NCBI GenBank assembly: GCA_944388545.1 | Contig: CALXJE010000003.1 | Location: forward strand, 9,436 to 73,435 | Length of the DNA: 64,000 nt | DNA from: an uncultured Clostridia bacterium | GTDB taxonomy: Bacteria; Bacillota; Clostridia; TANB77; CAG-465 | Reading direction: 5' to 3' | In this document: positions 9,118 through 61,109 of the stretch, one piece after another | Position numbering within the stretch: the stretch's first letter is position 1 | How the letters are laid out: every line of letters starts with the position of its first letter | The notes under the pieces: generated by a model | Seen by the model: the letters and a program-made list of their open reading frames with translations, nothing else | Told to the model about the DNA's origin: nothing | Databases searched by the model: none | Position numbers and translations under genes: made by a program

Positions 9118-10137
9118 ATGATTATAAAATATCCAAGTAGCGTTAAAAAAGGTGATACTATAGGAATAACAGCAATATCAAGTAGTGCAAATAAAGATAA
9201 ATTAAAGGTAGCATCAAAAAATTTGAAAAATTTAGGTTATAATATAATAGAAACAGATAATACAAAAACAGAATATAAGCTTGTAAGTTCTAAAGGTGAA
9301 GTTAGAGCAAAAGAATTTATGATGCTCTGGAAAGATGAAAAGGTTAAACATATAATTTCTGCAAGAGGTGGAGAATTTGCAATGGAGATGATACCTTATC
9401 TTCATGAATATAAAGAGGAGTTACATAATCTTCCTCCTAAGTGGATGCAAGGATATTCAGATACAAGTTTAATAAATTTTTATTTAACCACAAATTACAA
9501 TATTGCAACTGTACATGCGCAAAATTTAGGAGATTATGCTATGAAAAAATTACATTCATCATTAATAGATACATTAAATATGGTTAATTTAAGTGAAAAT
9601 GAAGAATATTTTCAAGAAAGTTTTAGTAAATATTCTAAAAGAGATGATTCAGAGGACGTAGAAGCGGAATATGATTTAATATACGATAATGAATACAAAA
9701 GTATGGATGATAAAAATAATCATAAATTTTCAGGTAGACTTATAGGAGGATGTATTGATGTAATAAAAACTATATTAGGAACACCTTATGATAATGTTAA
9801 TAATTTTTGCAAGCAATTTGATGAAGGAATAATATGGTATTTAGAAAATTGTGAATTATCAGTTCCAGATTTGTATAGAGCACTGTGGCAGATGAGAGAG
9901 GCAGGTTGGTTTAATAATGTAAATGCATTCTTAATAGGTAGAACTTTTAGTAAAGATGCAGTAGGAGAATACACATATTTGAATGCATTAGAAGATTCTA
10001 TAGGAAAGTTAAATGTACCAATAATATATGATGTTGATTTAGGACATATACCACCTCAAATGACATATATAAATGGTGCATATGCTGAATTTGAATATTT
10101 AAATGGTAAAGGAATTTTAAAACAAAAATATATATAA
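9118..10137 (+). CDS. LD-carboxypeptidase (peptidase S66 family)
   Basis: ARGGEF, the nucleophile-elbow-like GYSDTS, and a C-terminal DVDLGHIPP histidine motif, all typical of the LdcA/MccF family. Confidence 0.75.
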   Translation: MIIKYPSSVKKGDTIGITAISSSANKDKLKVASKNLKNLGYNIIETDNTKTEYKLVSSKGEVRAKEFMMLWKDEKVKHIISARGGEFAMEMIPYLHEYKEELHNLPPKWMQGYSDTSLINFYLTTNYNIATVHAQNLGDYAMKKLHSSLIDTLNMVNLSENEEYFQESFSKYSKRDDSEDVEAEYDLIYDNEYKSMDDKNNHKFSGRLIGGCIDVIKTILGTPYDNVNNFCKQFDEGIIWYLENCELSVPDLYRALWQMREAGWFNNVNAFLIGRTFSKDAVGEYTYLNALEDSIGKLNVPIIYDVDLGHIPPQMTYINGAYAEFEYLNGKGILKQKYI

Positions 10138-30787: not shown

Positions 30788-30859
30788 AATTGAACGCTTG
30801 ACATAGTAAAAAATATAGAGTACTATTAAATAGTAAAAATAAGAAAAGAGGGAAAATAA

Positions 30860-30952
<93 letters not shown>

Positions 30953-30984
30953 ATATAGGTTTTTGCACTCAAAACACAGCCGAA

Positions 30985-31067
30985 AATATAAATAGAGAAG
31001 TTAGTTATACTAAATAAAAAGTATAGCTAGCTTTTTTGCATTTAAGAAGATATAAACATGATAAAAA
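30985..31067 (+). repeat. intergenic hairpin repeat, copy C
   Basis: ATAAATAGAGAAGTTAGTTATAC-loop-GTATAGCTAGCTTTTTT...ATTTAA...TATAAACATGATAAAAA. It shares the 5' flank with copy A and the 3' flank with copy D. Confidence 0.7.
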
Positions 31068-31106
31068 GTCATGTTAATATAATTAAAAATAAAGAAAGAG
31101 AGGAAT

Positions 31107-32360
31107 ATGAAAATGGAAAAGAAAAAAGGACAAAGACAAGGAATATCATTAATAGTACTTGTAATAACAATAATAATAATGATAATCTTAGCAGGAGCAA
31201 TAATCTTAGCATTAAATAATAGCGGAGCCATCGGAAGAGCAACAGAGGCAACAGATAAGAGTGATAAAGCAACACTAAAAGAAGCAGCAAATGTAGCATA
31301 CGGAGAATGGACATTAGCAAGGCAGATGGACGGGGAGACAAAAAGTGCAGATGAATATGTAAAAGAAAAGTTAAAAGCACAAGGATTTAGTGATGAAGAT
31401 TTACAATTAGTATATGTAGATGATTCAGGTAAAATGTCAACAGCAACAGTGCCAGAAGGATTTGTAGCATCAGACATAGAAGGAGAAAACACAATAGCAG
31501 GAGGCTTAGTAATATATGAAGGAACGGAGAAAGTTTCAACAGATGTAGATGCCAAAACAACAAGGAATCAATTTGTATGGGTGCCAGTAGATATATCTGA
31601 GTTTACAAGGACAGCATGGTCAAATAATGTCCCAACATCTGGTTTATCATCAATTTTTACAGAGCCATATTCATATAGCACTGATATAGGAATATCAGAA
31701 GCAAATGATTTAACAGGAGAATATGCAGAGTATAAAGCAATGAGAGCAAGTGTAGAAAAATATGGAGGCTTTTATATAGGAAGATATGAAGCAGGAAGTG
31801 AAACAGAAAGAACAAATGTGGCAAATGGAACAACAAACATGGTAGTAAAACAAGATGCATATGTATATAACTATGTAGGATGGGGACCAAGCATGACATC
31901 AGTAGAAGGAGATGTAACAGATCAAGATAGTAAAAATCAAGGAAAAGGAGCAGTAGAACTATCAAGGAATTTATATAAAGATAATATGTCAGTAAAATCG
32001 ACATTAATATATGGAGTGCAGTGGGATGCAACATTAAGATTTATAGCAGATAGTGAGCATAATGTAAGTGATAGTTCGTCATGGGGAAATTATAGTAATA
32101 ATACAGATAGAACAAGTGTAAGTCCAAATAATCCGGCAAAAACAGGAGCACATGAAAATTGGAAAGCAAAGAATATATATGACTTAGCAGGAAATGTGTG
32201 GGAATGGACAATGGAGGCCGATAGTTCTAGTATCCGTGTTTGTCGCGGTGGTGGCTTCTCGGGCCGCGGTTCTTCCTACCCGGCATCTTTTCGTGGCGAC
32301 GGTAGGCCATCTAGTTGCGGCAGTGACGGCGGCTTCCGTCTAGCACTTTATGTAGTATAG
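31107..32360 (+). CDS. pilin-like N-terminal helix + FGE-sulfatase/C-type-lectin-fold domain protein (putative DGR target), copy 1
   Basis: The N-terminus MKMEKKKGQRQG-ISLIVLVITIIIMIILAGAIILALNN is nearly identical to that of the pilin gene at 45098. The C-terminal half carries FGE/SUMF1-type motifs (GFYIGRYE, NIYDLAGNVWEWT, RGGGF, GFRLA). It has a GAGAGGA RBS and an 85-90% identical paralog at 59850..61109. Confidence 0.8.
   Translation: MKMEKKKGQRQGISLIVLVITIIIMIILAGAIILALNNSGAIGRATEATDKSDKATLKEAANVAYGEWTLARQMDGETKSADEYVKEKLKAQGFSDEDLQLVYVDDSGKMSTATVPEGFVASDIEGENTIAGGLVIYEGTEKVSTDVDAKTTRNQFVWVPVDISEFTRTAWSNNVPTSGLSSIFTEPYSYSTDIGISEANDLTGEYAEYKAMRASVEKYGGFYIGRYEAGSETERTNVANGTTNMVVKQDAYVYNYVGWGPSMTSVEGDVTDQDSKNQGKGAVELSRNLYKDNMSVKSTLIYGVQWDATLRFIADSEHNVSDSSSWGNYSNNTDRTSVSPNNPAKTGAHENWKAKNIYDLAGNVWEWTMEADSSSIRVCRGGGFSGRGSSYPASFRGDGRPSSCGSDGGFRLALYVV
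32229..32330 (+). other. putative DGR variable region (VR1)
   Basis: GC-rich, A-poor block. It differs from the paralog at 27 of 102 nt, against about 5 of 130 nt in the preceding sequence. See findings. Confidence 0.6.
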
Positions 32361-32412: not shown

Positions 32413-32976
32413 TTATTTTATAAGATAATACAGTAAATCAATATATTCGTTAGGGGTAAGTAAAGTTTCCTTACTATCTGTACAACCTATTGAATGTTTT
32501 AATTTATAGCCTTCTTTTTTTACTTTTTTTATAGCATAACAAAATATAGGAGAGTGATTGTATAAAGAAATATAAGCATTTTTTAAAAGAGTTATATAAC
32601 TATTGCTATGTCTATCTATTTCTTTTCCTTGCCAAAAAACTTTTTGTGTAATGCGCCAATCATCAAATAATGTTCGTATACTATAACAAAATGGACCTGT
32701 TTTTGAACAAACATCTTTTTGCACAAACGAATCGTTTACTTTTAGAGATTGTATAAATGATTCCATGGAAGAACAATATACATTATCAAAAGTAAATGGA
32801 TAAGGGCATAGGTTTGAAAGAGCTTTAGAGATACCTTTGCTTTTAAAACTAATATCAATGGTATTTTCCTCATTTAAAGTATAATTACATGATAAATTAT
32901 TACATTCATATAATGTTGATGTTCCTTTTGTCAGTTCTTTGCCACATTTTGGACAGTGCAAAATTAAATTACTCAT
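32413..32976 (-). CDS. zinc-ribbon protein with weak NADAR/YbiA-like C-terminal region (tentative)
   Basis: N-terminal CPKCGKEL...CNNLSCNY zinc ribbon. The segment LSNLCPYPFTFDNVYCSSMESFIQSLKV resembles the FSNF-P-F-x-G-x-Y-S-EH-FQ-K core of NADAR/DUF1768 proteins. AGGAGG RBS. Confidence 0.35.
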   Translation of the reverse strand: MSNLILHCPKCGKELTKGTSTLYECNNLSCNYTLNEENTIDISFKSKGISKALSNLCPYPFTFDNVYCSSMESFIQSLKVNDSFVQKDVCSKTGPFCYSIRTLFDDWRITQKVFWQGKEIDRHSNSYITLLKNAYISLYNHSPIFCYAIKKVKKEGYKLKHSIGCTDSKETLLTPNEYIDLLYYLIK

Positions 32977-42121: not shown

Positions 42122-43726
42122 ATGGAAAGGTGTTTGGGTATATACATTGGTGATAAGATAATAAAATATGCCAAGTTGCATATGGACAAAAATAAAAATA
42201 TTGATGTAGAAGCATCAAACGTCAAATATGTCCTTGGTGGAATAAAAGAAGTGATTGATGAAATAATTGTTGAAACAAACAGTCAAAACACTCCTATTTC
42301 TATTAACATTCCGACGGAACACCATGAGAAGATGGAAATCTTAAAACAGATTTCTAGAAATGATATAGCAAGTATGGTAGAACTTGAAATTGAAGATATT
42401 GCAAATAAACAAGGTATAAATAATAAGTTATTGTTATATAAATTCAATATTCAAGATTCCCTTACAAATAGAGATAACAATAGGATCAATATATTATATA
42501 CTGATAAGACGGAAATAGAACAATATTCTAAAGTTGAAGGATTTAATATAAGTGGTGCATATCCTTTGTCAACGGTAATAACTGATCTTGTACCAAAAGA
42601 AGAAAAAAGTTATGCGGTTATTAATATAGAAGAAAGGACAACTATAAGTATTGTTTTAAATGGAAATATTATTGATACTATTGTTCTTGATGTTGGAATG
42701 AAAGAAGTTATTGACAGTTTATCAGAACAACTTGGTTCTTATGCTAAAGCTTATGATATGTGTAAAACAATTAACGTTTATACAGAGGATGAAAATCCAA
42801 ACAATCCAGAAGTAGAAAGAATAGTAGAGCCAATTTTACAAGACATATTAAGAAGAATTGAAGATAGTATAAAACCATATAGAGGAAAGTTTGAAAAGTT
42901 ATTTTTATCTGGTATGGGTGTATTATTTACTAATATAGACATACTATTTGAGCAATATTATGGTATGCCATCTGAAATATTGAAACCAGCGTTTACAAAA
43001 AGGGAAGTAGGAATAAGAAATATGGCTGAAATTATTGAAACTAATTCAGCTATAGCTCTTGCGAACTCACTTCTTACTGCATCAAAAGATGAATTAAACT
43101 TTATGATTCAAATAAATAAAAAACAACCTAAAAACAACAATGGAAATGGAGGTAAACTAAAATCAGGTCTTGATTTCTTCAGAAATGCTAAATTTAGTTT
43201 TAGTGGCGACACCTCAGATATATTACAGAAGCTTATATTTGCAGATTTAGTTATAGGTACAGTGCTTGTTGGTTATATTCTTTTTGGAGTAATATATTCT
43301 GCTCAAACTTCAAAAGTAGAAAAAGATATTAGAGCATCAATTTCTTCAATAGAAGAACAATCTGCTCTTGTAATGTCAGACGTTAATTATATAAATAATA
43401 ACAAAGATCAATATAAAGAAATAAATGATATGGTTACTGATATTGTTGATAAAATTCAATCTAATGAAATTGGTTCTTTAAGGACATATAATGTTGCAAA
43501 CTTTATGCAGAAAATAATGAAATTTATACCAAATAATATGCAACTTGTATCAATTGAGTCAAATGATAATAAGCATGTAACAATAGTTGCAAAATCAAGC
43601 TCTTATGCGGCACTAGGATATTTCGTATCACAACTTAAATTAGAAGGAATAATAAATAACGTGAAAATAGAAAGTGTAACTCATGGTACAGAAATTCAGG
43701 TAAGTATAGGCGGTGATTTACCATAA
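42122..43726 (+). CDS. pilM: type IV pilus assembly protein, PilM-PilN fusion
   Basis: An N-terminal actin-like ATPase-fold region of ~330 aa typical of PilM, then a TM helix (LIFADLVIGTVLVGYILFGVIY), a coiled coil, and a PilN-like C-terminal domain. GAGGAGAG RBS. Confidence 0.7.
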   Translation: MERCLGIYIGDKIIKYAKLHMDKNKNIDVEASNVKYVLGGIKEVIDEIIVETNSQNTPISINIPTEHHEKMEILKQISRNDIASMVELEIEDIANKQGINNKLLLYKFNIQDSLTNRDNNRINILYTDKTEIEQYSKVEGFNISGAYPLSTVITDLVPKEEKSYAVINIEERTTISIVLNGNIIDTIVLDVGMKEVIDSLSEQLGSYAKAYDMCKTINVYTEDENPNNPEVERIVEPILQDILRRIEDSIKPYRGKFEKLFLSGMGVLFTNIDILFEQYYGMPSEILKPAFTKREVGIRNMAEIIETNSAIALANSLLTASKDELNFMIQINKKQPKNNNGNGGKLKSGLDFFRNAKFSFSGDTSDILQKLIFADLVIGTVLVGYILFGVIYSAQTSKVEKDIRASISSIEEQSALVMSDVNYINNNKDQYKEINDMVTDIVDKIQSNEIGSLRTYNVANFMQKIMKFIPNNMQLVSIESNDNKHVTIVAKSSSYAALGYFVSQLKLEGIINNVKIESVTHGTEIQVSIGGDLP

Positions 43727-44514
43727 TGGATAAAAATATTATTAAAATTATAGGGCTTTTAGTTGGATTAGTTCTTTTAATAACTATTATAGTGCTTATA
43801 GCTATTAATGGTTTAACTATAGGGCCGCTTAATGCAGTATCAATATCAGGAATAGCTGATAAAAAAGATAGTGTAGAAAAGGCGAAAGATGATTTAGCTA
43901 AAGCCGAGTCACAATATGAAATTAATATGCAAAGTTTAGAAACATCAAAAAAAGAGTTTAAAACTCAAAAAGATGCATATGAACTTATTAGTGACGAAAC
44001 AATAGCAGCAATAAAAGAAGCTACTAAAGAAGAAGAATATTTTATAGAATATTTATGGATTACTTTAGGAAATTATGCAACAGCGCATAATTTGTCTCTT
44101 GCAATAGTTGAACCAGGTGGAACAGTGGCACAAGGAACAACAAATACAAATACTAATACTAATGCAGATACAGATGTAACAAACGTTTCTACCGGAACTG
44201 GGATTACAGGTAATGCATCAGGTGTAACTTCTACAGAAAATACAACTACAACTTCATCAACACAGACTGAAAATGAAGATGTAACAAATACTTCAACTAA
44301 TAACACAGTAACTAACATTACATCAAGCCAAAATGATTTAACAGTTCAAGTTAAAGGAAGTTATATAGATTTAGCAGATTTTGTATTTGAAGTTGAAAAT
44401 GACCAATCTTTAAGATTTAGATTAGATAACATTAAAATGAATTCAGCAGGAGGAAATGAAGTAATAACATCATTTAATGTAAAAGATTTTACTGTGCTAA
44501 AGTCTTTAGAGTAA
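43726..44514 (+). CDS. pilO: PilO-like pilus assembly protein with Thr/Asn-rich insert
   Basis: N-terminal TM helix, coiled coil, and a C-terminal LTVQVKGSYIDLADFVFEVEN...FRLDNIKM PilO-like fold. The start overlaps the pilMN stop (TAATG). Confidence 0.6.
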   Translation: MDKNIIKIIGLLVGLVLLITIIVLIAINGLTIGPLNAVSISGIADKKDSVEKAKDDLAKAESQYEINMQSLETSKKEFKTQKDAYELISDETIAAIKEATKEEEYFIEYLWITLGNYATAHNLSLAIVEPGGTVAQGTTNTNTNTNADTDVTNVSTGTGITGNASGVTSTENTTTTSSTQTENEDVTNTSTNNTVTNITSSQNDLTVQVKGSYIDLADFVFEVENDQSLRFRLDNIKMNSAGGNEVITSFNVKDFTVLKSLE

Positions 44515-44540
44515 TTTTATAGAAAGAAGGTAAAGAGTAT

Positions 44541-45023
44541 ATGGGTAGAAATTCATGGATAATGTTTGGAATGATAGCAATAGTAATAATGTCAATATTA
44601 CTTGTAGCTCTTCTTATATTAGTACCACAAAGCAGACCAATTACATCCGGAGTTGGCGAAGATTATGAAGCAATTACACAATCTGAGTTTTCGTATACTC
44701 AATCTAAAGATATTTCAACGGATGCAATGAAAGAAACATATAGCATAACTACTGAAGATATTGAAGAGGGAAAATCTTCTAAGTTGTATAAACAAGGAAA
44801 TACAGATCCTTTTGTAGATAAGAGCATATCTAATAATTCAGGAAATACTTCTACAGGAGGTAGTTCAAATACAGGATCTTCAGGTGGTAATACAAATACA
44901 AGTGGATCTAACAATACAAATACTAACACAAATACAAATAATAACAATAATACAGGTAATAGCAGTAATAGTGGTAATGATACTATAAATGATGAACCAC
45001 CATATTCTGCAGATAATAAATAA
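44541..45023 (+). CDS. membrane-anchored low-complexity protein in the pilus operon
   Basis: One TM helix and then an S/T/N/G-rich tail (NTNTSGSNNTNTNTNTNNNNNTGNSSNSGN). Unknown role. Confidence 0.45.
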   Translation: MGRNSWIMFGMIAIVIMSILLVALLILVPQSRPITSGVGEDYEAITQSEFSYTQSKDISTDAMKETYSITTEDIEEGKSSKLYKQGNTDPFVDKSISNNSGNTSTGGSSNTGSSGGNTNTSGSNNTNTNTNTNNNNNTGNSSNSGNDTINDEPPYSADNK

Positions 45024-45032
45024 ATTAGGTTT

Positions 45033-45075
45033 AAACATCGCCTCTTACCTTGGCGTGTTTGAATATATATTTTTT
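45033..45075 (+). terminator. hairpin upstream of the pilin gene (attenuator/terminator candidate)
   Basis: AAACATCGCC-loop-GGCGTGTTT followed by GAATATATATTTTTT. Confidence 0.35.
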
Positions 45076-45097
45076 GATGTATAGGAGGAATTATATT

Positions 45098-45478
45098 ATG
45101 AAAAAAGGTATTTCATTAATCGTATTAGTTATCACAATAATAATTATGATAATTATAGCTGGGGCTATAATATTAACATTAAATTCTTCAAACATAACAG
45201 GAAGAGCAAATTTTGCTACATTATTATCTGATAGAGCAAACTATCAAGCAAAATATGCTACATTAGTTGCAGATGCAATTGATGAAGATAATCCTTCACC
45301 AGTAATAGAAGCAGATGCATTAGGTTTTGCAACACATTCTTATGGAACTTGGAGTTTAGATAAAGCAGAAGGTTCAGTTGAATTTGTTATAAATTCTGGT
45401 GTTAACTTGAAAAATACATTTGGAATAGAATCTATAGATAGTACTAAATATCCTTGGTTAACACAAGCTGGTGCTTAA
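45098..45478 (+). CDS. type IV pilin-like protein (major-pilin candidate), Glu5-less
   Basis: ATG at 45098 after AGGAGGA. MKKG-ISLIVLVITIIIMIIIAGAIILTLN fits the prepilin pattern G-[FILVMY]-[ST]-[LT]-[LIVP] but has Val in place of Glu at +5. It is 126 aa and is followed by a strong hairpin. Confidence 0.6.
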   Translation: MKKGISLIVLVITIIIMIIIAGAIILTLNSSNITGRANFATLLSDRANYQAKYATLVADAIDEDNPSPVIEADALGFATHSYGTWSLDKAEGSVEFVINSGVNLKNTFGIESIDSTKYPWLTQAGA

Positions 45479-45522
45479 TAAATTTAATATAAAAACTAAT
45501 ACGAAAGCAAAAATGATAATGA

Positions 45523-45555
45523 GGTCATATACAAAAAGTATATGGCTTTTATTTT
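45523..45555 (+). terminator. intrinsic terminator after the pilin gene
   Basis: GGTCATATAC-loop-GTATATGGC(T) followed by TTTTATTTT. Confidence 0.55.
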
Positions 45556-45686
45556 ATATATATTTCTGAAATATTACAAGCGTGTATAAAATATATTACA
45601 TATAGTTTTATTAGTATAAATTGTATTTGATTTATGGTAGAATAAAGTAAAATATATAGTGATTTAAACATGTATTGGAGGGGCAA

Positions 45687-46481
45687 ATGGAAGTAGATCA
45701 ATTTATAAATATTGTATATATGATTAGCTTTTTTATAATAGGAACTCTATTTGGAAGTTTCTTTACTTTAGCAACATATAGAATACCTAGAAAACAAGAT
45801 ATAATGATTAAAAGATCATATTGTACAAATTGTAAACATGAATTGTCTTTTTTTGATTTGATTCCGGTTTTAAGCTATGTATTTTTAGGTGGAAAATGTA
45901 GATATTGCAAAGAAAAAATAAGTATAAGATATCCTTTGTTTGAAATAGCTAATGGATTATTTTTTCTAATTACTTATTATCTACTTGGTATTTCATGGAT
46001 TTTATTTGCAACCTTAATAATATATATAGCATTTTTCTTAGTAATTGGTTCTTATGTTATGAAATATAAAATGAATAAACAAGACCCAAATATTGCATAT
46101 AGTAAAAAAGGAGTTTTTAATGTTGAGCTTCTTGTTGCAGTTTTTGCTTTTATAATTTACTATATAGCAACAATATATACTACAAGAAACTACGAAGAAA
46201 CTTTGATGCAAGCTAAATTAAGATCAGATGCTATGAATCTAGCTGTTAATATATTAGAAGAAAACAGAGCTAAAGGCTTTGAATTTGTTGACAATGTGAA
46301 TAATGAAAATATAAAAATTGATGATCGTACATATTATTACAATTTAAGTGTTGAAGAATACGAAGATATTTCAGGAGATAGTAATACTGTGGATTTAAAA
46401 AGATTACAAGTCGATGTATCATATAAATATGATAGTAAGTCATATAACGTGAGTTTTCAAACAGTAATATATGAGGAGTAA
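45687..46481 (+). CDS. prepilin-peptidase N-terminal domain fused in frame to a GspI/PilV-like minor pilin (no A24 catalytic domain)
   Basis: Residues 1-~125 are TM1 plus the CTNCKHELSFFDLIPVLSYVFLGGKCRYCKEKISIRYPLFEIANG Zn-finger domain of PilD/ComC. No Asp/GxGD peptidase motifs follow. From the internal ATG at 46071 the sequence reads MNKQDPNIAYSKKG-VFNVELLVAVFAFIIYY, a canonical class III signal with Glu5. Confidence 0.6.
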   Translation: MEVDQFINIVYMISFFIIGTLFGSFFTLATYRIPRKQDIMIKRSYCTNCKHELSFFDLIPVLSYVFLGGKCRYCKEKISIRYPLFEIANGLFFLITYYLLGISWILFATLIIYIAFFLVIGSYVMKYKMNKQDPNIAYSKKGVFNVELLVAVFAFIIYYIATIYTTRNYEETLMQAKLRSDAMNLAVNILEENRAKGFEFVDNVNNENIKIDDRTYYYNLSVEEYEDISGDSNTVDLKRLQVDVSYKYDSKSYNVSFQTVIYEE

Positions 46482-46488
46482 TGAATAT

Positions 46489-47619
46489 ATGAATTTGAGT
46501 AGTAAAAAAGGAATAACAGTAACCTCAATAGTTGTATATGTAATTCTTTTCTTTGTATTTACAACAACAGCAATAGTTATATCATCTAGATTTAATAGAG
46601 AACTTTTTGATGATAGAGGTAAAGCTATTAACATTACAGCTATAAATAAGTTAGAATATAATTTGCTTAAAAGTGCTAAAGAAAGTAATTTAGCTCAAGG
46701 TTCTGTAGATGGAAATAAAACAACTATAACTTTTTCTAATTCAGATGTATACATTTTTGATTTAGATAATCACATAATATATAAAAATGGTGGAAAGTTA
46801 GTAAAATTTGTTAAAGAATGTAAAATAAAGTTAGTAAATAATTTAATAGATATTAATGTAACTTTAAATAAATATACAAATGAAATTACAAGAAATATAA
46901 AGGTAAGAGTACCTACAAAAGTAGTTTACACAACTAATGGATTAATTGCTTATTATGATGGAATAGATAATGTAGGTGATGGAAGTCATGATAGCAAAGT
47001 TAGAACTTGGAAAGATACAAGTACAAGTAATGTAACAGCACAGTTTAGTTCTGCATTTACAAATGATGGAATAAATGATGGCTGGGTAGAAGACGGAGTG
47101 TTATTTCCGATTGCTAGTAATGATTTTGATAGTGGATCGGATTATAATGTGACAGGTAGCTATTCAAGCAATGCGTATTCAAGCATATCATTTGAGCTTA
47201 CCTTAACAGTTTTAGATGAGCTTGGAACATTAGGAGATTCTTATATATATCCTTTAAGAATAAGAGCAAGTAGTGGTATTGTATCTTTGAATTTTGCGAT
47301 GAGAAAAAATGTAGGGTTAATGTATGGCTCTGGAAATAGTACAGTTTTTTATATAGGTAGAAATCTAGAAAAAGATAAAACATATACATTTACGTTTGTA
47401 CAAGAAAATTTGACAACGAGGGCAATATATCTTAACGGAGAATTTATTGAAAGGCAAACAGGATTTGCATTAAACCAAATAAATTTTACCAATATAATTA
47501 TGCAGGCTCATGCAAAGGGTCATTATATAATACATAGTGTTAGAGCATATAATAGAGCACTTACTGAAAATGAGGTTATTAAGAATTTTAATACAGATAA
47601 ATTAAGATATAATATCTAG
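46489..47619 (+). CDS. modular minor pilin-like protein with C-terminal LamG/concanavalin-A-like domain
   Basis: ATG at 46489 after GAGGAG. The N-terminus is MNLSSKKG-ITVTSIVVYVILFFVF. The C-terminal ~210 aa has the LamG_3-type pattern (GLIAYYDG...W.D.S......GW..DG..F......VRAYNRALTENEVIKNFN). Confidence 0.55.
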   Translation: MNLSSKKGITVTSIVVYVILFFVFTTTAIVISSRFNRELFDDRGKAINITAINKLEYNLLKSAKESNLAQGSVDGNKTTITFSNSDVYIFDLDNHIIYKNGGKLVKFVKECKIKLVNNLIDINVTLNKYTNEITRNIKVRVPTKVVYTTNGLIAYYDGIDNVGDGSHDSKVRTWKDTSTSNVTAQFSSAFTNDGINDGWVEDGVLFPIASNDFDSGSDYNVTGSYSSNAYSSISFELTLTVLDELGTLGDSYIYPLRIRASSGIVSLNFAMRKNVGLMYGSGNSTVFYIGRNLEKDKTYTFTFVQENLTTRAIYLNGEFIERQTGFALNQINFTNIIMQAHAKGHYIIHSVRAYNRALTENEVIKNFNTDKLRYNI

Positions 47620-47630
47620 GAGGAGTATTT

Positions 47631-47828
47631 ATGAAAAAAAGATTGGATAAGTTAAAAGGTTCAGGGACACTTATTATTATAATATCAGCAATTGTCTTTT
47701 TAACATATGCAACATCAACTTTTTCAGATGTTAGACATATGAAGTATATGCAAGAAAAATATGAAAATAATATTAGAGAAATATATGAGAAAGACTTAGA
47801 AGTTTTAGAGTCAGAAAATTATATATAA
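47631..47828 (+). CDS. small pilin-like protein
   Basis: AGGAGGAG RBS. MKKRLDKLKG-SGTLIIIISAIVFLTYATSTF is a basic leader, then Gly, then a hydrophobic helix. 65 aa. Confidence 0.4.
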   Translation: MKKRLDKLKGSGTLIIIISAIVFLTYATSTFSDVRHMKYMQEKYENNIREIYEKDLEVLESENYI

Positions 47829-47863
47829 AATAGGTTAATAATTACATTTGGAGGTAATATATT

Positions 47864-49504
47864 ATGTTTGAAAATATTAAAAGCAGAAGAAGTCCGTTAG
47901 GTGCAGAGCTTATAAATAAAGGACTTATAACAGAAAGACAACTAGATGAAGTATTAGAGTATCAAAAAACACATCCTGAGTTTAAAATAGGTGAAATAGT
48001 TGATATTTTAAATATGTGTGATAAAAAGAAACTTCTTTCAGTTGTAGCAGAGCAATTAAAACAAAAAAGCGTAGATTTAACCAAAGGAATATCAATTGAT
48101 TATACAGAATTCTTACCTAGAGATGTTGTTATAAATAACAAGGCTTTTCCTTTTGCTATAGATGGAACAACTGTAAAAGTAGCTTTTTCTGACCCACTTG
48201 ACGATAAGGCAACAAATGAAGTAAAATTACTTTTAGTAAATAGAGGATTTCAAATGGACAAATACTTTACACTTTATTCTATGATAATGGAACAAATACA
48301 AGATGTAAAGAATGTTCAAGATAAGTTTGTTGATACGAGAGAAAAAGATACAACAGTGTTAGTTGATAATATAATACTAACTGCTATGAAACAAAGAGCT
48401 AGTGATATACATGTAGAACCTATGGAGAAAAAAGTAAGAATTCGTTATAGAATAGACGGTGAGTTAGTAGAAGTATCAGAGCTTCCAAAATCTAGACAGG
48501 GAGTTCTTACAGGAAGACTTAAATCTATTTCTAATATGCACCAAGAAGTTACAACGGACCAGGATGGTAGAATAAGTTCATATGATAACTATAGTATCCG
48601 TGTATCTACACAAAAAAATATAAATGGTGAAAAATTTGTTCTTAGATTATTAAAGAAAAATTCAGATATAAGAACGTTAAAAGAATTAGGATTTCCAACT
48701 GAAGAAGAAGGTTTAGTAGATAGGTGTTTTGACAAGAAAAATGGTATTATATTACTTTGTGCACCAACAGGTGAAGGTAAAACAACCACATTATATAGTA
48801 TATTGGACTATTTAAATAAGCCTAATATTAATATTGTTACAATTGAAAATCCGGTTGAAATAAGAATGCCTGGAGTAAATCAAGTTGAAATTAGTCACGA
48901 TACTTCTTTTAATGGTGCGTTAAGAACAGTTTTAAGACAAGATCCAAACATTATACTTGTAGGAGAGATAAGAGATAAGGAAACAGCTCAGACTGCTGTT
49001 GAATCAGGACAAACAGGACATTTGGTTTTAAGTACAATTCATACTATAAATGCAATTGAAGCTATAACAAGAATAAGAAAAATGGGAATTTCTGATTATG
49101 ATGTAGCATCTTCATTTGTTACAATAATATCTCAAAGACTTATAAGAAGACTTTGTAATAAATGTAAAAAACCACATAATATTACTGAAGAAGAAAAAAA
49201 ATATATTAATCAAGTTGAAAAATTGACAGGATATAAATTTGATTTAAGTAAAGCTAATATGTATGAACCTGTAGGTTGTGATGAATGTTCAAATCTTGGT
49301 TATTTTGAAAGAATAGGGGTATTTGAAATATTATATGTTGATGAGTACATAAAAGAAATGATATCTTCTGGAAAATCATCAATAGAAATAAAGAAATATG
49401 CTATAGAAAATACTGATTATAATCCACTTATAATCGATTCAATAAACAAAGCATTACAAGGAATAACTACTATAGAAGAAATTCAAAAGAAGATGAGTAT
49501 ATAA
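47864..49504 (+). CDS. pilB: type IV pilus assembly ATPase PilB (GspE family)
   Basis: T2SSE N-terminal domain, Walker A APTGEGKTTT, Walker B ILVGEIRD, His box, and the tetracysteine motif CNKCKK...CDECSNLG. Confidence 0.9.
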   Translation: MFENIKSRRSPLGAELINKGLITERQLDEVLEYQKTHPEFKIGEIVDILNMCDKKKLLSVVAEQLKQKSVDLTKGISIDYTEFLPRDVVINNKAFPFAIDGTTVKVAFSDPLDDKATNEVKLLLVNRGFQMDKYFTLYSMIMEQIQDVKNVQDKFVDTREKDTTVLVDNIILTAMKQRASDIHVEPMEKKVRIRYRIDGELVEVSELPKSRQGVLTGRLKSISNMHQEVTTDQDGRISSYDNYSIRVSTQKNINGEKFVLRLLKKNSDIRTLKELGFPTEEEGLVDRCFDKKNGIILLCAPTGEGKTTTLYSILDYLNKPNINIVTIENPVEIRMPGVNQVEISHDTSFNGALRTVLRQDPNIILVGEIRDKETAQTAVESGQTGHLVLSTIHTINAIEAITRIRKMGISDYDVASSFVTIISQRLIRRLCNKCKKPHNITEEEKKYINQVEKLTGYKFDLSKANMYEPVGCDECSNLGYFERIGVFEILYVDEYIKEMISSGKSSIEIKKYAIENTDYNPLIIDSINKALQGITTIEEIQKKMSI

Positions 49505-49522
49505 ATATTATAAAGGGGTATT

Positions 49523-50608
49523 ATGGAAAAGTTTTTTAAAATCTTAGACGAAGCTCTAAAACTCGATGCATCAGATATCCATTTGCTTAATGGTAAACCT
49601 CCAGTTTTTAGAGTAGAAAAAAAACTTATAGAATTTAACGAGATAGAACCACTTACTAAATACGATTTAGAAGGTTTAATGGAATATTTAGTTAATGATA
49701 GTATTGAGCTTGTAGATATATTTGAAAATGCAAAAAAATTAGATATATCTTATGAATATATGAAAAAAAGATTTAGAGTAAATGCAAGTATGTCTTTTGG
49801 GGTTCCTACATTTTCTATAAGAATAATTCAAAATGAAGAAATTGATATAAAGAAATTTAACTTGGAAAAAATGGTAGGAATAATTAAAAAGTTTAACTCG
49901 GGACTTATTCTTATAACGGGAAAAGTTAATTCTGGTAAAACTACTACATTAAATGCATATGTTCAAACTATTAATAAAGAGAGAAATAAAAAGGTAGTAA
50001 TGCTAGAAGAACCAATAGAACATAGACATACATCTGATAAATGTGTTATAGTTCAAAAAGAAGTAGGCAAGACAGGAGACGTACCTTCATATTATGACGG
50101 AGTAATAAATTTGCTTAGAGAAGATGCAGATATTGCAATAGTTGGTGAGATAAGGGACAGGCAAACAATGGATGCAGTTTTAGACTTAGCAGAATCAGGT
50201 ACTTTGGTAATAGGTACACTTCATACAAGAGCTTGTGGTGAAACATTAGATAGGATATTAGGTCTTTATTCGCCTAGTGAGCAAAAATCAATAAAATATA
50301 TATTATCTACAGTTTTGAAAGCAGTAGTGTCACAAAAACTTGTTAAAGATAAAGAGGATCATGTAATAATGGTGCCAGAAGTAATGATTAATAATTCTAC
50401 TATTTCTGCTCTTATAAGGCAAGAAAACTTTAGTATTTCTGAAATACAAGATGCCATAGACAGAAAAAGTGAAAAAGGAATGATAAGTTTTGAAAGATCA
50501 TTTGCTAAGTTATATGAAGATGGTCAAATAACACTAGAAAGTATAAGAGAGAATGTTGAAGACGAGCAATACCAATATATATTGAAACTATTAGGAGGGG
50601 ATAATTAG
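49523..50608 (+). CDS. pilT: pilus retraction ATPase PilT
   Basis: 361 aa with ASDIHL, Walker A GKVNSGKTTT, AIVGEIRD, and the TLHT His box. Confidence 0.85.
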   Translation: MEKFFKILDEALKLDASDIHLLNGKPPVFRVEKKLIEFNEIEPLTKYDLEGLMEYLVNDSIELVDIFENAKKLDISYEYMKKRFRVNASMSFGVPTFSIRIIQNEEIDIKKFNLEKMVGIIKKFNSGLILITGKVNSGKTTTLNAYVQTINKERNKKVVMLEEPIEHRHTSDKCVIVQKEVGKTGDVPSYYDGVINLLREDADIAIVGEIRDRQTMDAVLDLAESGTLVIGTLHTRACGETLDRILGLYSPSEQKSIKYILSTVLKAVVSQKLVKDKEDHVIMVPEVMINNSTISALIRQENFSISEIQDAIDRKSEKGMISFERSFAKLYEDGQITLESIRENVEDEQYQYILKLLGGDN

Positions 50609-51969
50609 TGCCAGATTTTAAATATAGAGCGGTTTTAAGAAATGGAAAAATAATAAGAGGAATTCTTAACGCAAAATCAAAAGCAGAAGTAATACAGATG
50701 ATAAAAGACACTAAAATGACTCCTATATCTATAAATGCAAAGAAAATAAAAAGACCTGCTGTTCAAAAGAAAAAAATAGATTTAAAAAAAATAAGTAAGG
50801 TTGCAGATAAGAATAGTAAAAGATCAAGATCATTTGCTATGAATGCTCCTAAAGGGGCAACATCTAAAAAAGACAAAATTATGTCTATACTTACTTCTGA
50901 TGTAAGTTTTTCAAGAGGTGTTAAGCCAAAAGATGTCCTTATATTTACAAATGCTTTGTATATACTAAAAAAAGCAAAATTTAATAATATAACAGCGCTA
51001 GAATCAGTATACAATAGTACAGAAGATAAAAAGTTAAAAGACATAATTGAAGAAATAATTATAGGAGTTGAATCAGGAGAAACAATATATTCTACTATGG
51101 CGAAATACCCAAATGTATTTCCACCACTTTATGCTAATTTCGTAAAAGTTGGTGAAGAATCAGGGTCACTTGATACAGCACTTCAATATGGTAGACAATA
51201 CATGGAAAGTAGTATAAAGCTTAGAAAAACAATTAGAGGTATATTAATTCCAAAAATATTACTATTTGTTATTGTTATAGCATTAATGATGGTAGCGTTA
51301 TTATTTGGTGCTCCTTTAATAGAAAATGTATATGATATGTTTGGATCTGATAGAGAGCTTCCAGCAGCTACTCAGGCAGCTATAGCATTTTCTGAAGCTA
51401 TAATAAATAATTGGTATATTGTTTTAGGTGTTATAGTAGCAATTTATATAGGATTTAGAGTATATATATCTACACCTATGGGTAGATATAATTGGGATAA
51501 ATTAAAAATTAAATTCCCTATATTTGGAAGGCTAAACTTGAATATTTTAACAAATAAATTCTTCCAGGCAATGTCACTTAACTTAAGAAACGGAATGAGA
51601 TTACAAGATAGTTTAGAGATTTCAAAAAGTGTTACTAATAACTATTATTTCCTAGCTCTTATAGAGACAGGAAAAAACAATCTTTTATCTGGAGGAACTT
51701 GGGTTGACCCATTTGAAATAGAAGGGGCATTTTCTCCTATGATTTTAGAAATGATTAATATAGGTATGCAAACAGACCTTGTTGAGATGATGTCTAAAAT
51801 AGAAGAGTATGTTGAAGAAGAAATTAATGAATCAATTAATAGAATTATTAAGATACTACCAGATTTAATGTATGTATTCGTAGGTATTGTACTTATAATA
51901 TTCGTAATAACAGTAATGATTCCACTTATAGATGTATACATGGGAGGATTCTTATTTGATACATTATAA
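50608..51969 (+). CDS. pilC: type IV pilus platform protein PilC (GspF family)
   Basis: Two T2SSF repeats with 3 TM segments. The GTG start overlaps the pilT stop, after a GGAGGGG RBS. Confidence 0.85.
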   Translation: MPDFKYRAVLRNGKIIRGILNAKSKAEVIQMIKDTKMTPISINAKKIKRPAVQKKKIDLKKISKVADKNSKRSRSFAMNAPKGATSKKDKIMSILTSDVSFSRGVKPKDVLIFTNALYILKKAKFNNITALESVYNSTEDKKLKDIIEEIIIGVESGETIYSTMAKYPNVFPPLYANFVKVGEESGSLDTALQYGRQYMESSIKLRKTIRGILIPKILLFVIVIALMMVALLFGAPLIENVYDMFGSDRELPAATQAAIAFSEAIINNWYIVLGVIVAIYIGFRVYISTPMGRYNWDKLKIKFPIFGRLNLNILTNKFFQAMSLNLRNGMRLQDSLEISKSVTNNYYFLALIETGKNNLLSGGTWVDPFEIEGAFSPMILEMINIGMQTDLVEMMSKIEEYVEEEINESINRIIKILPDLMYVFVGIVLIIFVITVMIPLIDVYMGGFLFDTL

Positions 51970-59765: not shown

Positions 59766-59849
59766 ATATAAAGATGCAATTAAAAATGACTACTTGGCAC
59801 ATAGAAAATTATACGATAATATAAAATTATAAAATAGGAAAAGAGGAAG

Positions 59850-61109
59850 ATGAAAATGGAAACAAAGAACAGCCAGAGGGAAGGAATATCTTTAATAGTG
59901 CTGGTAATAACAATAATAATAATGATAATACTAGCAGGAGCAATAATATTAACATTAAATAATAGTGGAATAATCGGAAGAGCAGAGGAAGCACGAGATA
60001 AAAGTGACACATCAACACTAAAAGAGGCAGCAAATATAGCATACTCAGAATGGACATTAGCAAGACAGATGGACGGGGAGACAAAAAGTGCAGATGCATA
60101 TGTTAAAGATAAGTTAAAAGATCAAGGTTTTAGTGACGAAGATTTACAACTAGTATATATAGAAGATACAGGTAAGATATTGATAGCAACAGTGCCAGAA
60201 GGATTTGTAGCATCAGATATAGAAGGAGAAAATACAGTAGCAGAAGGACTAGTAATATATGAAGGATCCGAGAAAGTATCAACAGATACAGATGCAAAGA
60301 CAACAAGAAATCAATTTGTATGGGTGCCAGTAGATATATCAGAGTTTGAGAGAACAGCCTGGTCAAATAATGCACCAGCATCTGGTTTATCATCAATTTT
60401 TACAGAGCCATATTCATATAGCACTGATATAGGTATATCAGAAGTAAATGATTTAACAGGAGAATATGCAGAGTATAAAGCGATGAAAGCAAGTGTAGAA
60501 AAATATGGAGGCTTTTATATAGGAAGATATGAAGCAGGAAGTGAGACAGAAAGAACTAATGTAGCTAATGGGACGACAAACATGGTAGCAAAAAAAGATG
60601 CATATGTATATAATTATGTAGGATGGGGACAAGATATGTCAACTACAGAAGGTGATGTGTATGATTGGGATTATAATTTAAATCAAGGAAAAGGAGCAGT
60701 AGAACTATCAAGAAATTTATATAAAGATAGTGATTCAGTAAAATCAACATTAATATATAGTGTGCAGTGGGATGCAGTATTAAGGTTTATAGCAGATAGT
60801 GAGCATAATGTAACAGATAGTACATCATGGGGAAATTATTATAATAATCCAGATAGAACAAGTGTAAGTCCAAATATTCCAGCGAAAACAGGAGCACATG
60901 AAAATTGGAAAGCAAAGAATATATATGATTTAGCAGGAAATGTGTGGGAATGGACAATGGAGGCCGATAGTTCTATTTTCCGTGTTGGTCGCGGTGGTAG
61001 CTACTCGCGCTACGGTTCTAACTACCCAGCCTCTTATCGTACCTACGTTAGTCCGTCTTGGTGCGTCAGTAGCGCCGGCTTCCGTCTAGCACTTTATGTT
61101 ATTGTTTAA
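59850..61109 (+). CDS. pilin-like N-terminal helix + FGE-sulfatase/C-type-lectin-fold domain protein (putative DGR target), copy 2
   Basis: MKMETKNSQREG-ISLIVLVITIIIMIILAGAIILTLNN. It has the same domain motifs as 31107..32360 (NIYDLAGNVWEWT, RGGSY, GFRLA). Homology to copy 1 begins ~35 nt upstream of the ATG and ends at ...gcactttatgt. Confidence 0.8.
   Translation: MKMETKNSQREGISLIVLVITIIIMIILAGAIILTLNNSGIIGRAEEARDKSDTSTLKEAANIAYSEWTLARQMDGETKSADAYVKDKLKDQGFSDEDLQLVYIEDTGKILIATVPEGFVASDIEGENTVAEGLVIYEGSEKVSTDTDAKTTRNQFVWVPVDISEFERTAWSNNAPASGLSSIFTEPYSYSTDIGISEVNDLTGEYAEYKAMKASVEKYGGFYIGRYEAGSETERTNVANGTTNMVAKKDAYVYNYVGWGQDMSTTEGDVYDWDYNLNQGKGAVELSRNLYKDSDSVKSTLIYSVQWDAVLRFIADSEHNVTDSTSWGNYYNNPDRTSVSPNIPAKTGAHENWKAKNIYDLAGNVWEWTMEADSSIFRVGRGGSYSRYGSNYPASYRTYVSPSWCVSSAGFRLALYVIV
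60975..61076 (+). other. putative DGR variable region (VR2)
   Basis: Counterpart of 32229..32330, with the same A-free scaffold codons but different residues at the variable codons. Confidence 0.6.

Follow-up and report, generated by a model that had tools for sequence, protein, structure and literature searches.

Two lectin genes with a pilin-type N-terminus in an uncultured Clostridia bacterium: candidate remote targets of a diversity-generating retroelement, one of them behind a possible phase-variable leader

We analysed a stretch of 64,000 nucleotides of forward-strand DNA, here called the window, from an uncultured Clostridia bacterium (assembly GCA_944388545.1, contig CALXJE010000003.1, positions 9,436 to 73,435). 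The window holds two paralogous genes, A and B, that join a pilin-type N-terminus to a lectin-type domain with an unusual 3' end, resembling the variable region (VR) of a target of a diversity-generating retroelement (DGR). Nearly the same N-terminus is found in a small pilin-like gene of a type IV pilus operon in the same window. Both paralogs lie exactly where an earlier reading of the bare letters, without database searches (the sequence-only reading), had placed their open reading frames (ORFs). The features on which the argument rests are the following.

31107..32360, + strand: paralog A, an ORF of 417 residues
59850..61109, + strand: paralog B, an ORF of 419 residues with the same architecture as paralog A
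31107..31271, + strand: pilin-like N-terminal module of paralog A (leader and helix alpha1), in common with 45098-45478
45098..45478, + strand: small pilin-like gene of 126 residues in the pilin position of the operon, beginning MKKG-ISLIVLVITIIIMIIIAGAIIL (the hyphen follows the conserved Gly), with 343 homologs
32216..32348, + strand: VR-like 3' end of paralog A, a candidate DGR VR with invariant 3' GGCTTCCGTCTAGCACTT
60962..61094, + strand: VR-like 3' end of paralog B

The DNA sequences of the two paralogs are 87.5% identical over 1250 nucleotides. The only further match to them in the window is a stretch of 80 nucleotides at 45105-45184, with 81% identity. Paralog A starts with a basic leader (residues 1-12, ending in Gly12) and a pilin-type hydrophobic helix (residues 13-37), which are followed by a linker, a helical stalk and the lectin ectodomain. 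The AlphaFold model of the protein has a pLDDT of 91.1 and places a helix at residues 15-38, with low confidence at residues 37-51.

The N-terminus of the paralogs is strikingly similar to that of the small pilin-like gene. In the first 27 residues from the Gly, 24-25 are identical between the paralogs and 45098-45478 (24 for paralog A), and BLASTP aligns paralog A with this gene at 70% identity over 47 residues. The corresponding 27 codons contain 12-13 synonymous codon differences (12 for paralog A) and 17 nucleotide differences; for instance, GGA ATA TCA TTA ATA GTA CTT GTA stands against GGT ATT TCA TTA ATC GTA TTA GTT. Because the residues have been kept despite these synonymous differences, selection appears to have acted on the peptide, rather than a recent exchange of DNA. 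The sequence-only reading had argued the same from some 30 nearly identical residues after the Gly and from these diverged codon strings, and our counts bear it out.

The N-terminus has the properties of a class III signal, defined by a hydrophilic leader that is short and has Gly or Ala as its last residue, with a tract of about 21 hydrophobic residues behind it (PMC8179133). In line with this definition, the leader MKMEKKKGQRQG is followed by a hydrophobic tract of 24 residues. All 111 members of the lectin family that carry the motif have either Gly (100) or Ala (11) at position -1, and all 120 small pilins have Gly. The leaders of the lectin family have a median length of 8 residues and a net charge of +3. 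At position +5, both paralogs and 45098-45478 have Val.

The small-pilin family comprises 343 matches, all unannotated, in which the first ~30 residues are near-invariant and the remainder is variable. The AlphaFold model of the small pilin (pLDDT 90.9) consists of a kinked helix of 58 residues (3-60) and a small sheet. When the family profile is compared with the PDB, the top entries are all pilins, namely PilA5 (E 0.04) and two geopilins. The lectin-family profile finds geopilin 9egp as well, over positions 2-66 (E 0.0014, bias 0). This alignment is in register, with the Gly on the cleavage-site Gly of the geopilin and the Val opposite its Glu5. Overall, the geopilin profile matches have E-values of 0.0014 and 0.0068.

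The small pilin-like gene belongs to an operon for a type IV pilus, which comprises the following features in addition to the gene itself.

42122..51969, + strand: type IV pilus operon
42122-43726, + strand: PilM/N fusion
43726-44514, + strand: PilO-like gene
44541-45023, + strand: ORF of 160 residues
45675-46481, + strand: fusion of a PilD N-domain with a pilin-like segment (PilD-like gene)
46471-47619, + strand: LamG pilin-like gene
47631-47828, + strand: pilin-like gene of 65 residues
47864-49504, + strand: PilB
49523-50608, + strand: PilT
50608-51969, + strand: PilC

The gene order of this operon is kept in L029, L081 and L082 (L-numbers denote loci fetched from relatives) and in 39 metagenome loci. 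The metagenome operons were fetched by means of the PilD-like gene, and our counts cover the 39 loci of at least 12 kb. All 39 contain pilB, pilMN and pilC, and in each of them one to four small pilin-like genes lie directly upstream of the PilD-like gene. The genes in this pilin position start with G-ISLIVLV in 21 operons, with G-ITL(V/I)ALV in 17 and with G-VTLVALV in one. Position -1 is Gly in 50 out of 50 operon pilin-like genes, and position +5 is Val or Ala. The lectin family bears the same two N-terminal types, G-ISLIVLV and G-ITL(V/I)ALV, and these operon-pilin types also occur on the lectins that the DGR cassettes of L024 and L037, described below, target in cis.

One of the related operons links the lectin domain to the pilus genes directly. 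In L029 (7179-8306), a homolog of the 65-residue ORF at 47631-47828 is fused to the same lectin domain, immediately upstream of pilB, so that the lectin module is physically tied to the pilus operon. The 3' end of this fusion does not have a VR-like composition, and between the PilO-side ORF of L029 and its PilD-like gene no small pilin gene of at least 55 residues was found. Judged by their sequence, the N-termini of paralogs A and B are the pilin N-terminus of an unusual type IV pilus system of this clade, which lacks the Glu at position 5.

Several other features of these operons deserve mention. Among the operons L093-L172 (e.g. L147, 6643-6870; L116, 4938-6810), some of the genes in the pilin position encode only 70-78 residues, and some form tandem arrays of up to four paralogs. 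In two relatives (L081, 10481-11851; L082, 7697-9067) a Wzy_C gene, resembling O-antigen ligases, directly follows the small pilin gene; the window does not contain it. This arrangement recalls pilin O-glycosylases such as TfpO, whose gene follows pilA in Pseudomonas. The PilO-like protein and the product of the next, 160-residue ORF (43726-45023) have long low-complexity tails rich in Asn, Thr and Ser, and the DNA behind these tails has (AATACA)n-like repeats (44140-44172 and 44889-44978). The LamG pilin-like gene at 46471-47619 begins KKG-ITVTSIVVYVILFF and ends in a Laminin_G_3/concanavalin-A-like domain (20.2 bits, below the cut-off), a module of the same kind as in the modular pilin PilC of Streptococcus sanguinis. 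A phmmer search with this ORF against PDB sequences gave no matches. We also considered whether this second operon N-terminus is fused to the lectin domain as well, and dropped the idea since BLASTP against P0018 shows no similarity.

The C-terminal part of the paralogs has the C-type-lectin fold of TvpA and formylglycine-generating enzymes (FGE), a variable lectin fold of the DGR type. Both C-termini match the FGE-sulfatase family PF03781, as the sequence-only reading had expected, with 27.5 bits for paralog A, above the cut-off of 23.3, and 20.4 bits for paralog B, below it. A Foldseek search with the model of paralog A retrieved TvpA (2y3c, E 1e-5) as the top PDB match, followed by formylglycine-generating enzymes. 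Likewise, the profile of the lectin family matches SUMF2 and TvpA.

The 3' ends of both genes differ strongly in composition from the remainder. Adenine accounts for only 10% of the VR-like end in paralog A and 14% in paralog B, versus about 43-44% in the remainder of the genes. This is a stronger depletion than in the proven cis targets of the relatives, which have 19-21% A. The GC content of the VR-like ends is 55-60% (60% in paralog A), versus about 34-35% in the remainder. Using template repeats (TRs) from relatives solely as a map of adenine positions, we found that the differences between the VRs of the two paralogs fall on A sites of these heterologous TRs (19/47, compared to 6/86 of the other sites, p = 9e-6). 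Moreover, the two VRs are identical at nearly all predicted non-A positions while the remainder of the genes differs by 12.5%, which suggests recent homogenisation by one TR.

The lectin family to which the paralogs belong is large, with more than 7,000 matches, and occurs in many copies in metagenome-assembled genomes (MAGs) of uncultured Clostridia from the gut of humans, rabbits and chickens. Among the best 80 loci of these matches, a single MAG contains 7-8 separate loci. Four loci (L017, L024, L031, L037) have an accessory gene, Avd and a reverse transcriptase (RT) after a family member. The TR was sought and found in two of these, L024 and L037, where it follows the RT. Comparison of the L024 TR with its own VR gave mismatches at 26 of 54 A sites and at none of 85 non-A sites. 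Its mismatches with the VRs on two further contigs of the same MAG were also concentrated at A sites (19/49 A versus 1/85 non-A sites, and 23/49 versus 4/85), and the TR of L037 matches the VR in L043. Since one TR matches VRs on other contigs, a single DGR seems to serve several dispersed paralogs.

Members of this family may also occur side by side. L003 (9989-17800, 19624-21060) contains tandem family members on one contig, with starts at 9989, 13883 and 16562. The same locus encodes a pilin-like protein of 477 residues with a LamG-like C-terminus and a protein of 677 residues with the same N-terminus.

Taken together, the fold, the A-depleted 3' ends, the differences at adenine sites and the DGRs of relatives make it very probable that paralogs A and B are remote targets of a DGR. 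The sequence-only reading had proposed a DGR-diversified lectin domain, and this proposal is supported. It could not be verified inside the window itself: because the window has neither an RT motif nor a TR, the DGR acting on its genes must be inferred.

The region that separates paralog A from pflA contains, at 30798-31106, a set of elements that could form a regulatory leader.

30798..30826, + strand: promoter-like site TTGACA-17-TACTAT (consensus match only)
30860..30952, + strand: small leader ORF, MLTKERKRVVGV(HT)nHKYNLEII and stop, with a ribosome-binding site ahead
30895-30928, + strand: perfect (AC)17 tract inside the leader ORF
30993..31038, + strand: hairpin resembling an intrinsic terminator, with a stem of 19 bp and a T run (free energy of the segment -29 kcal/mol, z = -4.7)

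One of the three leader frames is open up to a TAA at 31015-31017, within the terminator-like hairpin. The frame now present in the window is a short one. Paralog B does not have a repeat-bearing leader upstream. In the 1.35 Mb of DNA that we fetched, there are only 13 dinucleotide tracts other than AT with at least six units, and 12 of the 13 have a same-strand pilin-like gene 87-365 nucleotides downstream. Every such (AG)n or (AC)n tract lies in a short leader ORF that has a terminator after it, a layout which 12 loci share with the window. The frames behave alike at all 13 loci, the window among them, in that two meet a stop codon no more than about 25 nucleotides from the tract and the third reaches into or past the terminator. 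A shuffle control assigned this frame pattern a joint probability of 10^-7, a figure that exaggerates the significance since the loci are related.

The lengths of the tracts vary between and within loci. Four assemblies of one orthologous locus differ in the tract, with (AC)16 in L089 and L091 but (AC)15 in L090 and L092, although they agree in the flanks and in the protein encoded downstream. L011 contains three near-identical leaders, with (AG)11, (AG)13 and (AG)8. Assembly errors may account for such differences. A search of the leader region against Rfam returned only a sub-threshold chance match.

This layout of a ribosome-binding site, a small ORF with a repeat, a terminator and a gene is similar to that of the pil1 locus of Streptococcus gallolyticus. 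There, a repeat alters the length of a leader peptide, and during translation of the longer peptides the ribosome disrupts a premature terminator ahead of the pilus genes, as was shown experimentally (PMC3894217). The two systems also differ. The repeat in S. gallolyticus is GCAGA and precedes sortase pilus genes, whereas here we find (AC)n or (AG)n tracts ahead of a single pilin-like lectin gene, known from sequence. In its layout, the leader ahead of paralog A resembles a pil1-type attenuator, in which a leader peptide mediates phase variation. Under the S. gallolyticus model, the short frame present in the window would correspond to the 'off' state.

A possible explanation that brings these observations together is that paralogs A and B encode surface adhesins made of three parts. 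The first part is of pilin type and is the module also seen in the small pilin of the operon. It comprises a short leader that is basic and has Gly at its end, a hydrophobic helix of ~24 residues and about 20 further residues. A flexible linker and helical stalk come next, and then the lectin domain, whose last ~40 codons form the VR. A DGR elsewhere in the genome would copy its TR, with adenine-specific errors, into both VRs and thereby rewrite the ligand-binding surface. The PilB/PilC/PilMN/PilO machinery would handle the lectin protein like a pilin by way of its N-terminus, and the pilus would present the lectin domain, whose bulk makes a place at the tip most likely. In addition, slippage in the (AC)17 tract may switch paralog A on and off, in that the tract would set the frame of the leader peptide and hence whether the ribosome disrupts the terminator ahead of the gene. 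We lean modestly towards this explanation as a whole. Within it, display on pili is the best-supported mechanism, though unproven, and its chances are roughly even.

A number of observations weigh against display on pili. Both lectin genes are outside the pilus operon, one 10 kb before it and the other 8 kb past it, and around the 39 other operons no lectin genes were found within 7 kb. In the model of paralog A, a break of low confidence follows the membrane helix, and a pilin head as a separate domain is missing. Of the two parts expected of a modular pilin, the lectin module is clear, whereas the pilin module can be recognised only in alpha1, over about 45-55 residues. Foldseek found no significant match to the small-pilin model in the PDB (PAK pilin, E 2.5). 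The proteins lack Glu5, a residue that almost all bacterial type IV pilins have; none of 111 lectin-family members, 120 small pilins and 50 operon pilin-like genes has Glu at +5. The search with N_methyl profiles suggested by the sequence-only reading also failed, as PF07963 and TIGR02532 gave no match at E-values up to 1 (ncbifam) or, with N-terminal fragments, up to 10 (pfam). This search has low power, since the Glu5-bearing pilin-like segment at 46089-46478 went unmatched likewise.

Processing of the N-terminus raises a similar difficulty. The PilD-like gene at 45675-46481 contains only the N-terminal zinc-finger domain PF06750, followed by a pilin-like segment with an acidic residue at +5 (KKG-VFNVE). 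This form of ~265 residues, with PF06750 only, is kept in more than 120 homologs, some of which are called 'prepilin peptidase' by NCBI. In the G-ITL operons, the PilD-like gene has a C-terminal half with multiple transmembrane segments, a form present in L139 and L146, and no match to PF01478 was found by Pfam search in the PilD-like genes of the related operons. The window does not contain an A24 protease domain, and the catalytic motif GxGD[VA]K, searched as a regular expression, occurs neither in the window nor in any fetched locus. Cleavage after Gly12 is therefore unsupported by these loci, as they contain no catalytic domain of a prepilin peptidase. Possibly, an A24-type peptidase is encoded elsewhere in the genome.

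These points leave room for another view, in which the lectins are DGR-diversified receptors that stay in the cytoplasmic membrane by an uncleaved signal-anchor, and the likeness to pilins reflects common descent of a favoured anchor. We consider this a serious but less likely alternative. A survey of DGR targets reads the N-terminal transmembrane segments of most cellular targets as anchors (PMC8144416), which would also fit the missing Glu5, N_methyl match and protease domain, and the scattering of the lectin genes among housekeeping genes. Furthermore, 1358 protein clusters of 46-1183 residues carry the 55-residue module, invariably at the extreme N-terminus, and some of these unrelated proteins bear adhesin domains of the BspA-type leucine-rich repeat, immunoglobulin-like or GLUG type. 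A conserved N-terminal anchor on so many adhesin-type proteins is compatible with a plain membrane anchor too.

However, generic anchors are not conserved residue by residue. In the lectin family, whose members are elsewhere 40-50% identical, conservation peaks in the first ~25 mature residues, which are kept while synonymous change is saturated. Position -1 is strictly Gly or Ala. The same sequence is also the sole pilin candidate in all 39 pilus operons, and in L029 a pilin-like gene of the operon bears the very same lectin domain. For these reasons, we prefer display by the pilus machinery to retention by a membrane anchor.

The missing Glu5 had been interpreted in the sequence-only reading as the mark of a tip-located subunit, as in GspK. 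Tip minor pilins such as GspK likewise lack Glu5 and have an extra domain. Yet, all 50 operon pilin-like genes lack Glu5 as well. Because this is a property of the pilin-position genes of the whole clade, the absence of Glu5 cannot mark a tip subunit, and we rejected it as such a marker. Nor was any similarity to GspK found.

A second alternative is that the paralogs are decayed former targets, in which the retroelement has been lost and the VRs have been frozen, leaving ordinary fixed adhesins. Within the 64-kb window, we found neither an RT motif nor a third copy of the VR or a template repeat. Similarly, the pattern CGTGTTNNTCGCGGTGGTNNCNNCTCGNNCNNCGGTTCT, representing the cognate TR and VR, had no matches in the JGI metagenome and viral collections. 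Some family members may indeed be fixed. The protein P0093 (L089-L092), its VR included, is identical in at least 24 contigs from many samples, which implies that not all members are actively varied at present, and the 3' end of the L029 fusion is not VR-like. Decay nevertheless seems improbable for the genes in the window, as their VRs are more depleted in A than those of proven cis targets and are nearly identical at the predicted non-A positions despite the divergence of the remainder of the genes. Targets remote from the RT are usual in the relatives. Moreover, the TR scans covered only the JGI collections, which evidently lack this species and held not even the VRs themselves.

The paralogs also stand out from their surroundings in composition. 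Their coding strand has 23-25% T, compared to 28-32% in adjacent genes, and their GC content is 37%, compared to 27.5%. The T-poor coding strand described in the sequence-only reading is thus real, though moderate. The long antisense ORFs described there exist as well, at 31010-31555 (181 residues) and in a second region, where we find two ORFs (59780-60010 and 59827-60099) instead of one. The neighbours of the paralogs in the window are pflA, dnaE, ftsY and engB, with paralog B starting 84 nucleotides past ftsY. The lectin genes of the relatives are next to mutS/mutL, lon and sigma factor genes. Beside paralog A, on the - strand at 32413-32976, is a gene matching the phage GP30.3 family (PF08010, E 7.5e-27) with an N-terminal zinc ribbon, which stands alone between paralog A and dnaE.

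From the composition, the sequence-only reading had suggested a possible foreign or phage origin. On this view the genes would be receptor-binding proteins derived from phage or horizontally acquired remnants of a prophage, and the adjoining GP30.3-like gene could be cited in its favour too. It is very improbable. Only 6 related loci were found in 2.9 million viral contigs, whereas bacterial genomes gave at least 515. Housekeeping genes adjoin the lectin genes in the window and in the relatives, and the shift in composition is strongest in the VR, as a DGR would produce.

Several known systems share parts of this architecture. Of these, TvpA of Treponema denticola (PDB 2Y3C) is the closest in its lectin domain, with the same FGE-type C-type-lectin fold, a C-terminal VR that is rewritten by a DGR, and a location at the cell surface. 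TvpA is exported as a lipoprotein. The paralogs, in contrast, have a pilin-like N-terminus, and their family is highly multi-copy, with most copies far from an RT.

The modular type IV pilins of S. sanguinis are similar in design. PilB bears a vWA module and PilC a concanavalin-A-like lectin module (PMC8179133; PMC9934059). As in our paralogs, an N-terminus of class III type bears a bulky adhesive module; for the paralogs, display by pili is what we propose from sequence. PilB and PilC differ in that they have the canonical motif with Glu5, a complete PilD, a small pilin head and genes in the pil locus, and are not hypermutated. A survey of modular pilins lists the architecture IPR012902-IPR005532, which combines a pilin motif with an FGE domain, in 8 proteins, and does not mention DGRs (PMC8179133).

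DGRs have been connected with pili before, in a different phylum. Type V pili form an unrelated assembly system, with lipoprotein precursors and strand exchange. In Bacteroides from the gut, a DGR diversifies the ligand-binding residues of adhesins associated with type V pili, in a study that mentions neither type IV pili, Firmicutes nor prepilins (bioRxiv 10.1101/2024.11.15.621889). Roux et al. (2021) described cellular DGR targets with an N-terminal transmembrane segment and a C-terminal C-lectin VR, and found DGRs to be enriched in Firmicutes and in the human gut (PMC8144416). That work read the segment as a plain anchor and does not mention pili, whereas here the segment equals the N-terminus of the pilins in the pilus operons of the clade. 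A GspG-type pilin domain is among the rare domains that hold VRs in a DGR survey. We found no paper that links DGRs with type IV pilins. The claim of the sequence-only reading that a pilin module hypermutated by a DGR had not been described has to be tempered by the type V adhesins, the pilin and FGE architecture and the GspG-type domain, which were known.

If the lectins are carried on type IV pili, they would be the first example that we found in which a DGR rewrites the binding surface of a subunit of such a pilus. Modular pilins, targeted hypermutation and repeat-driven phase variation would then be joined in abundant, uncultured Clostridia of the gut. Motif models that require Glu5 would miss a whole clade of pilins and more than 1000 protein clusters with its N-terminus. 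The finding also raises the question of how these pilins are processed, given that the PilD-like protein of the operon has no recognisable protease domain, and the DGR targets of gut Firmicutes that have been catalogued as 'N-terminal transmembrane' could be re-examined. More tentatively, the clade as a whole may build a non-canonical filament, with pilins that lack Glu5 and a PilD-like protein in which no protease domain can be recognised. It would display a large repertoire of dispersed lectins, with one DGR acting in trans and many of the genes switched individually by attenuators. We regard this wider view as rather unlikely at present. If it holds true, these Clostridia would have a combinatorial and stochastic display of adhesins on a pilus.

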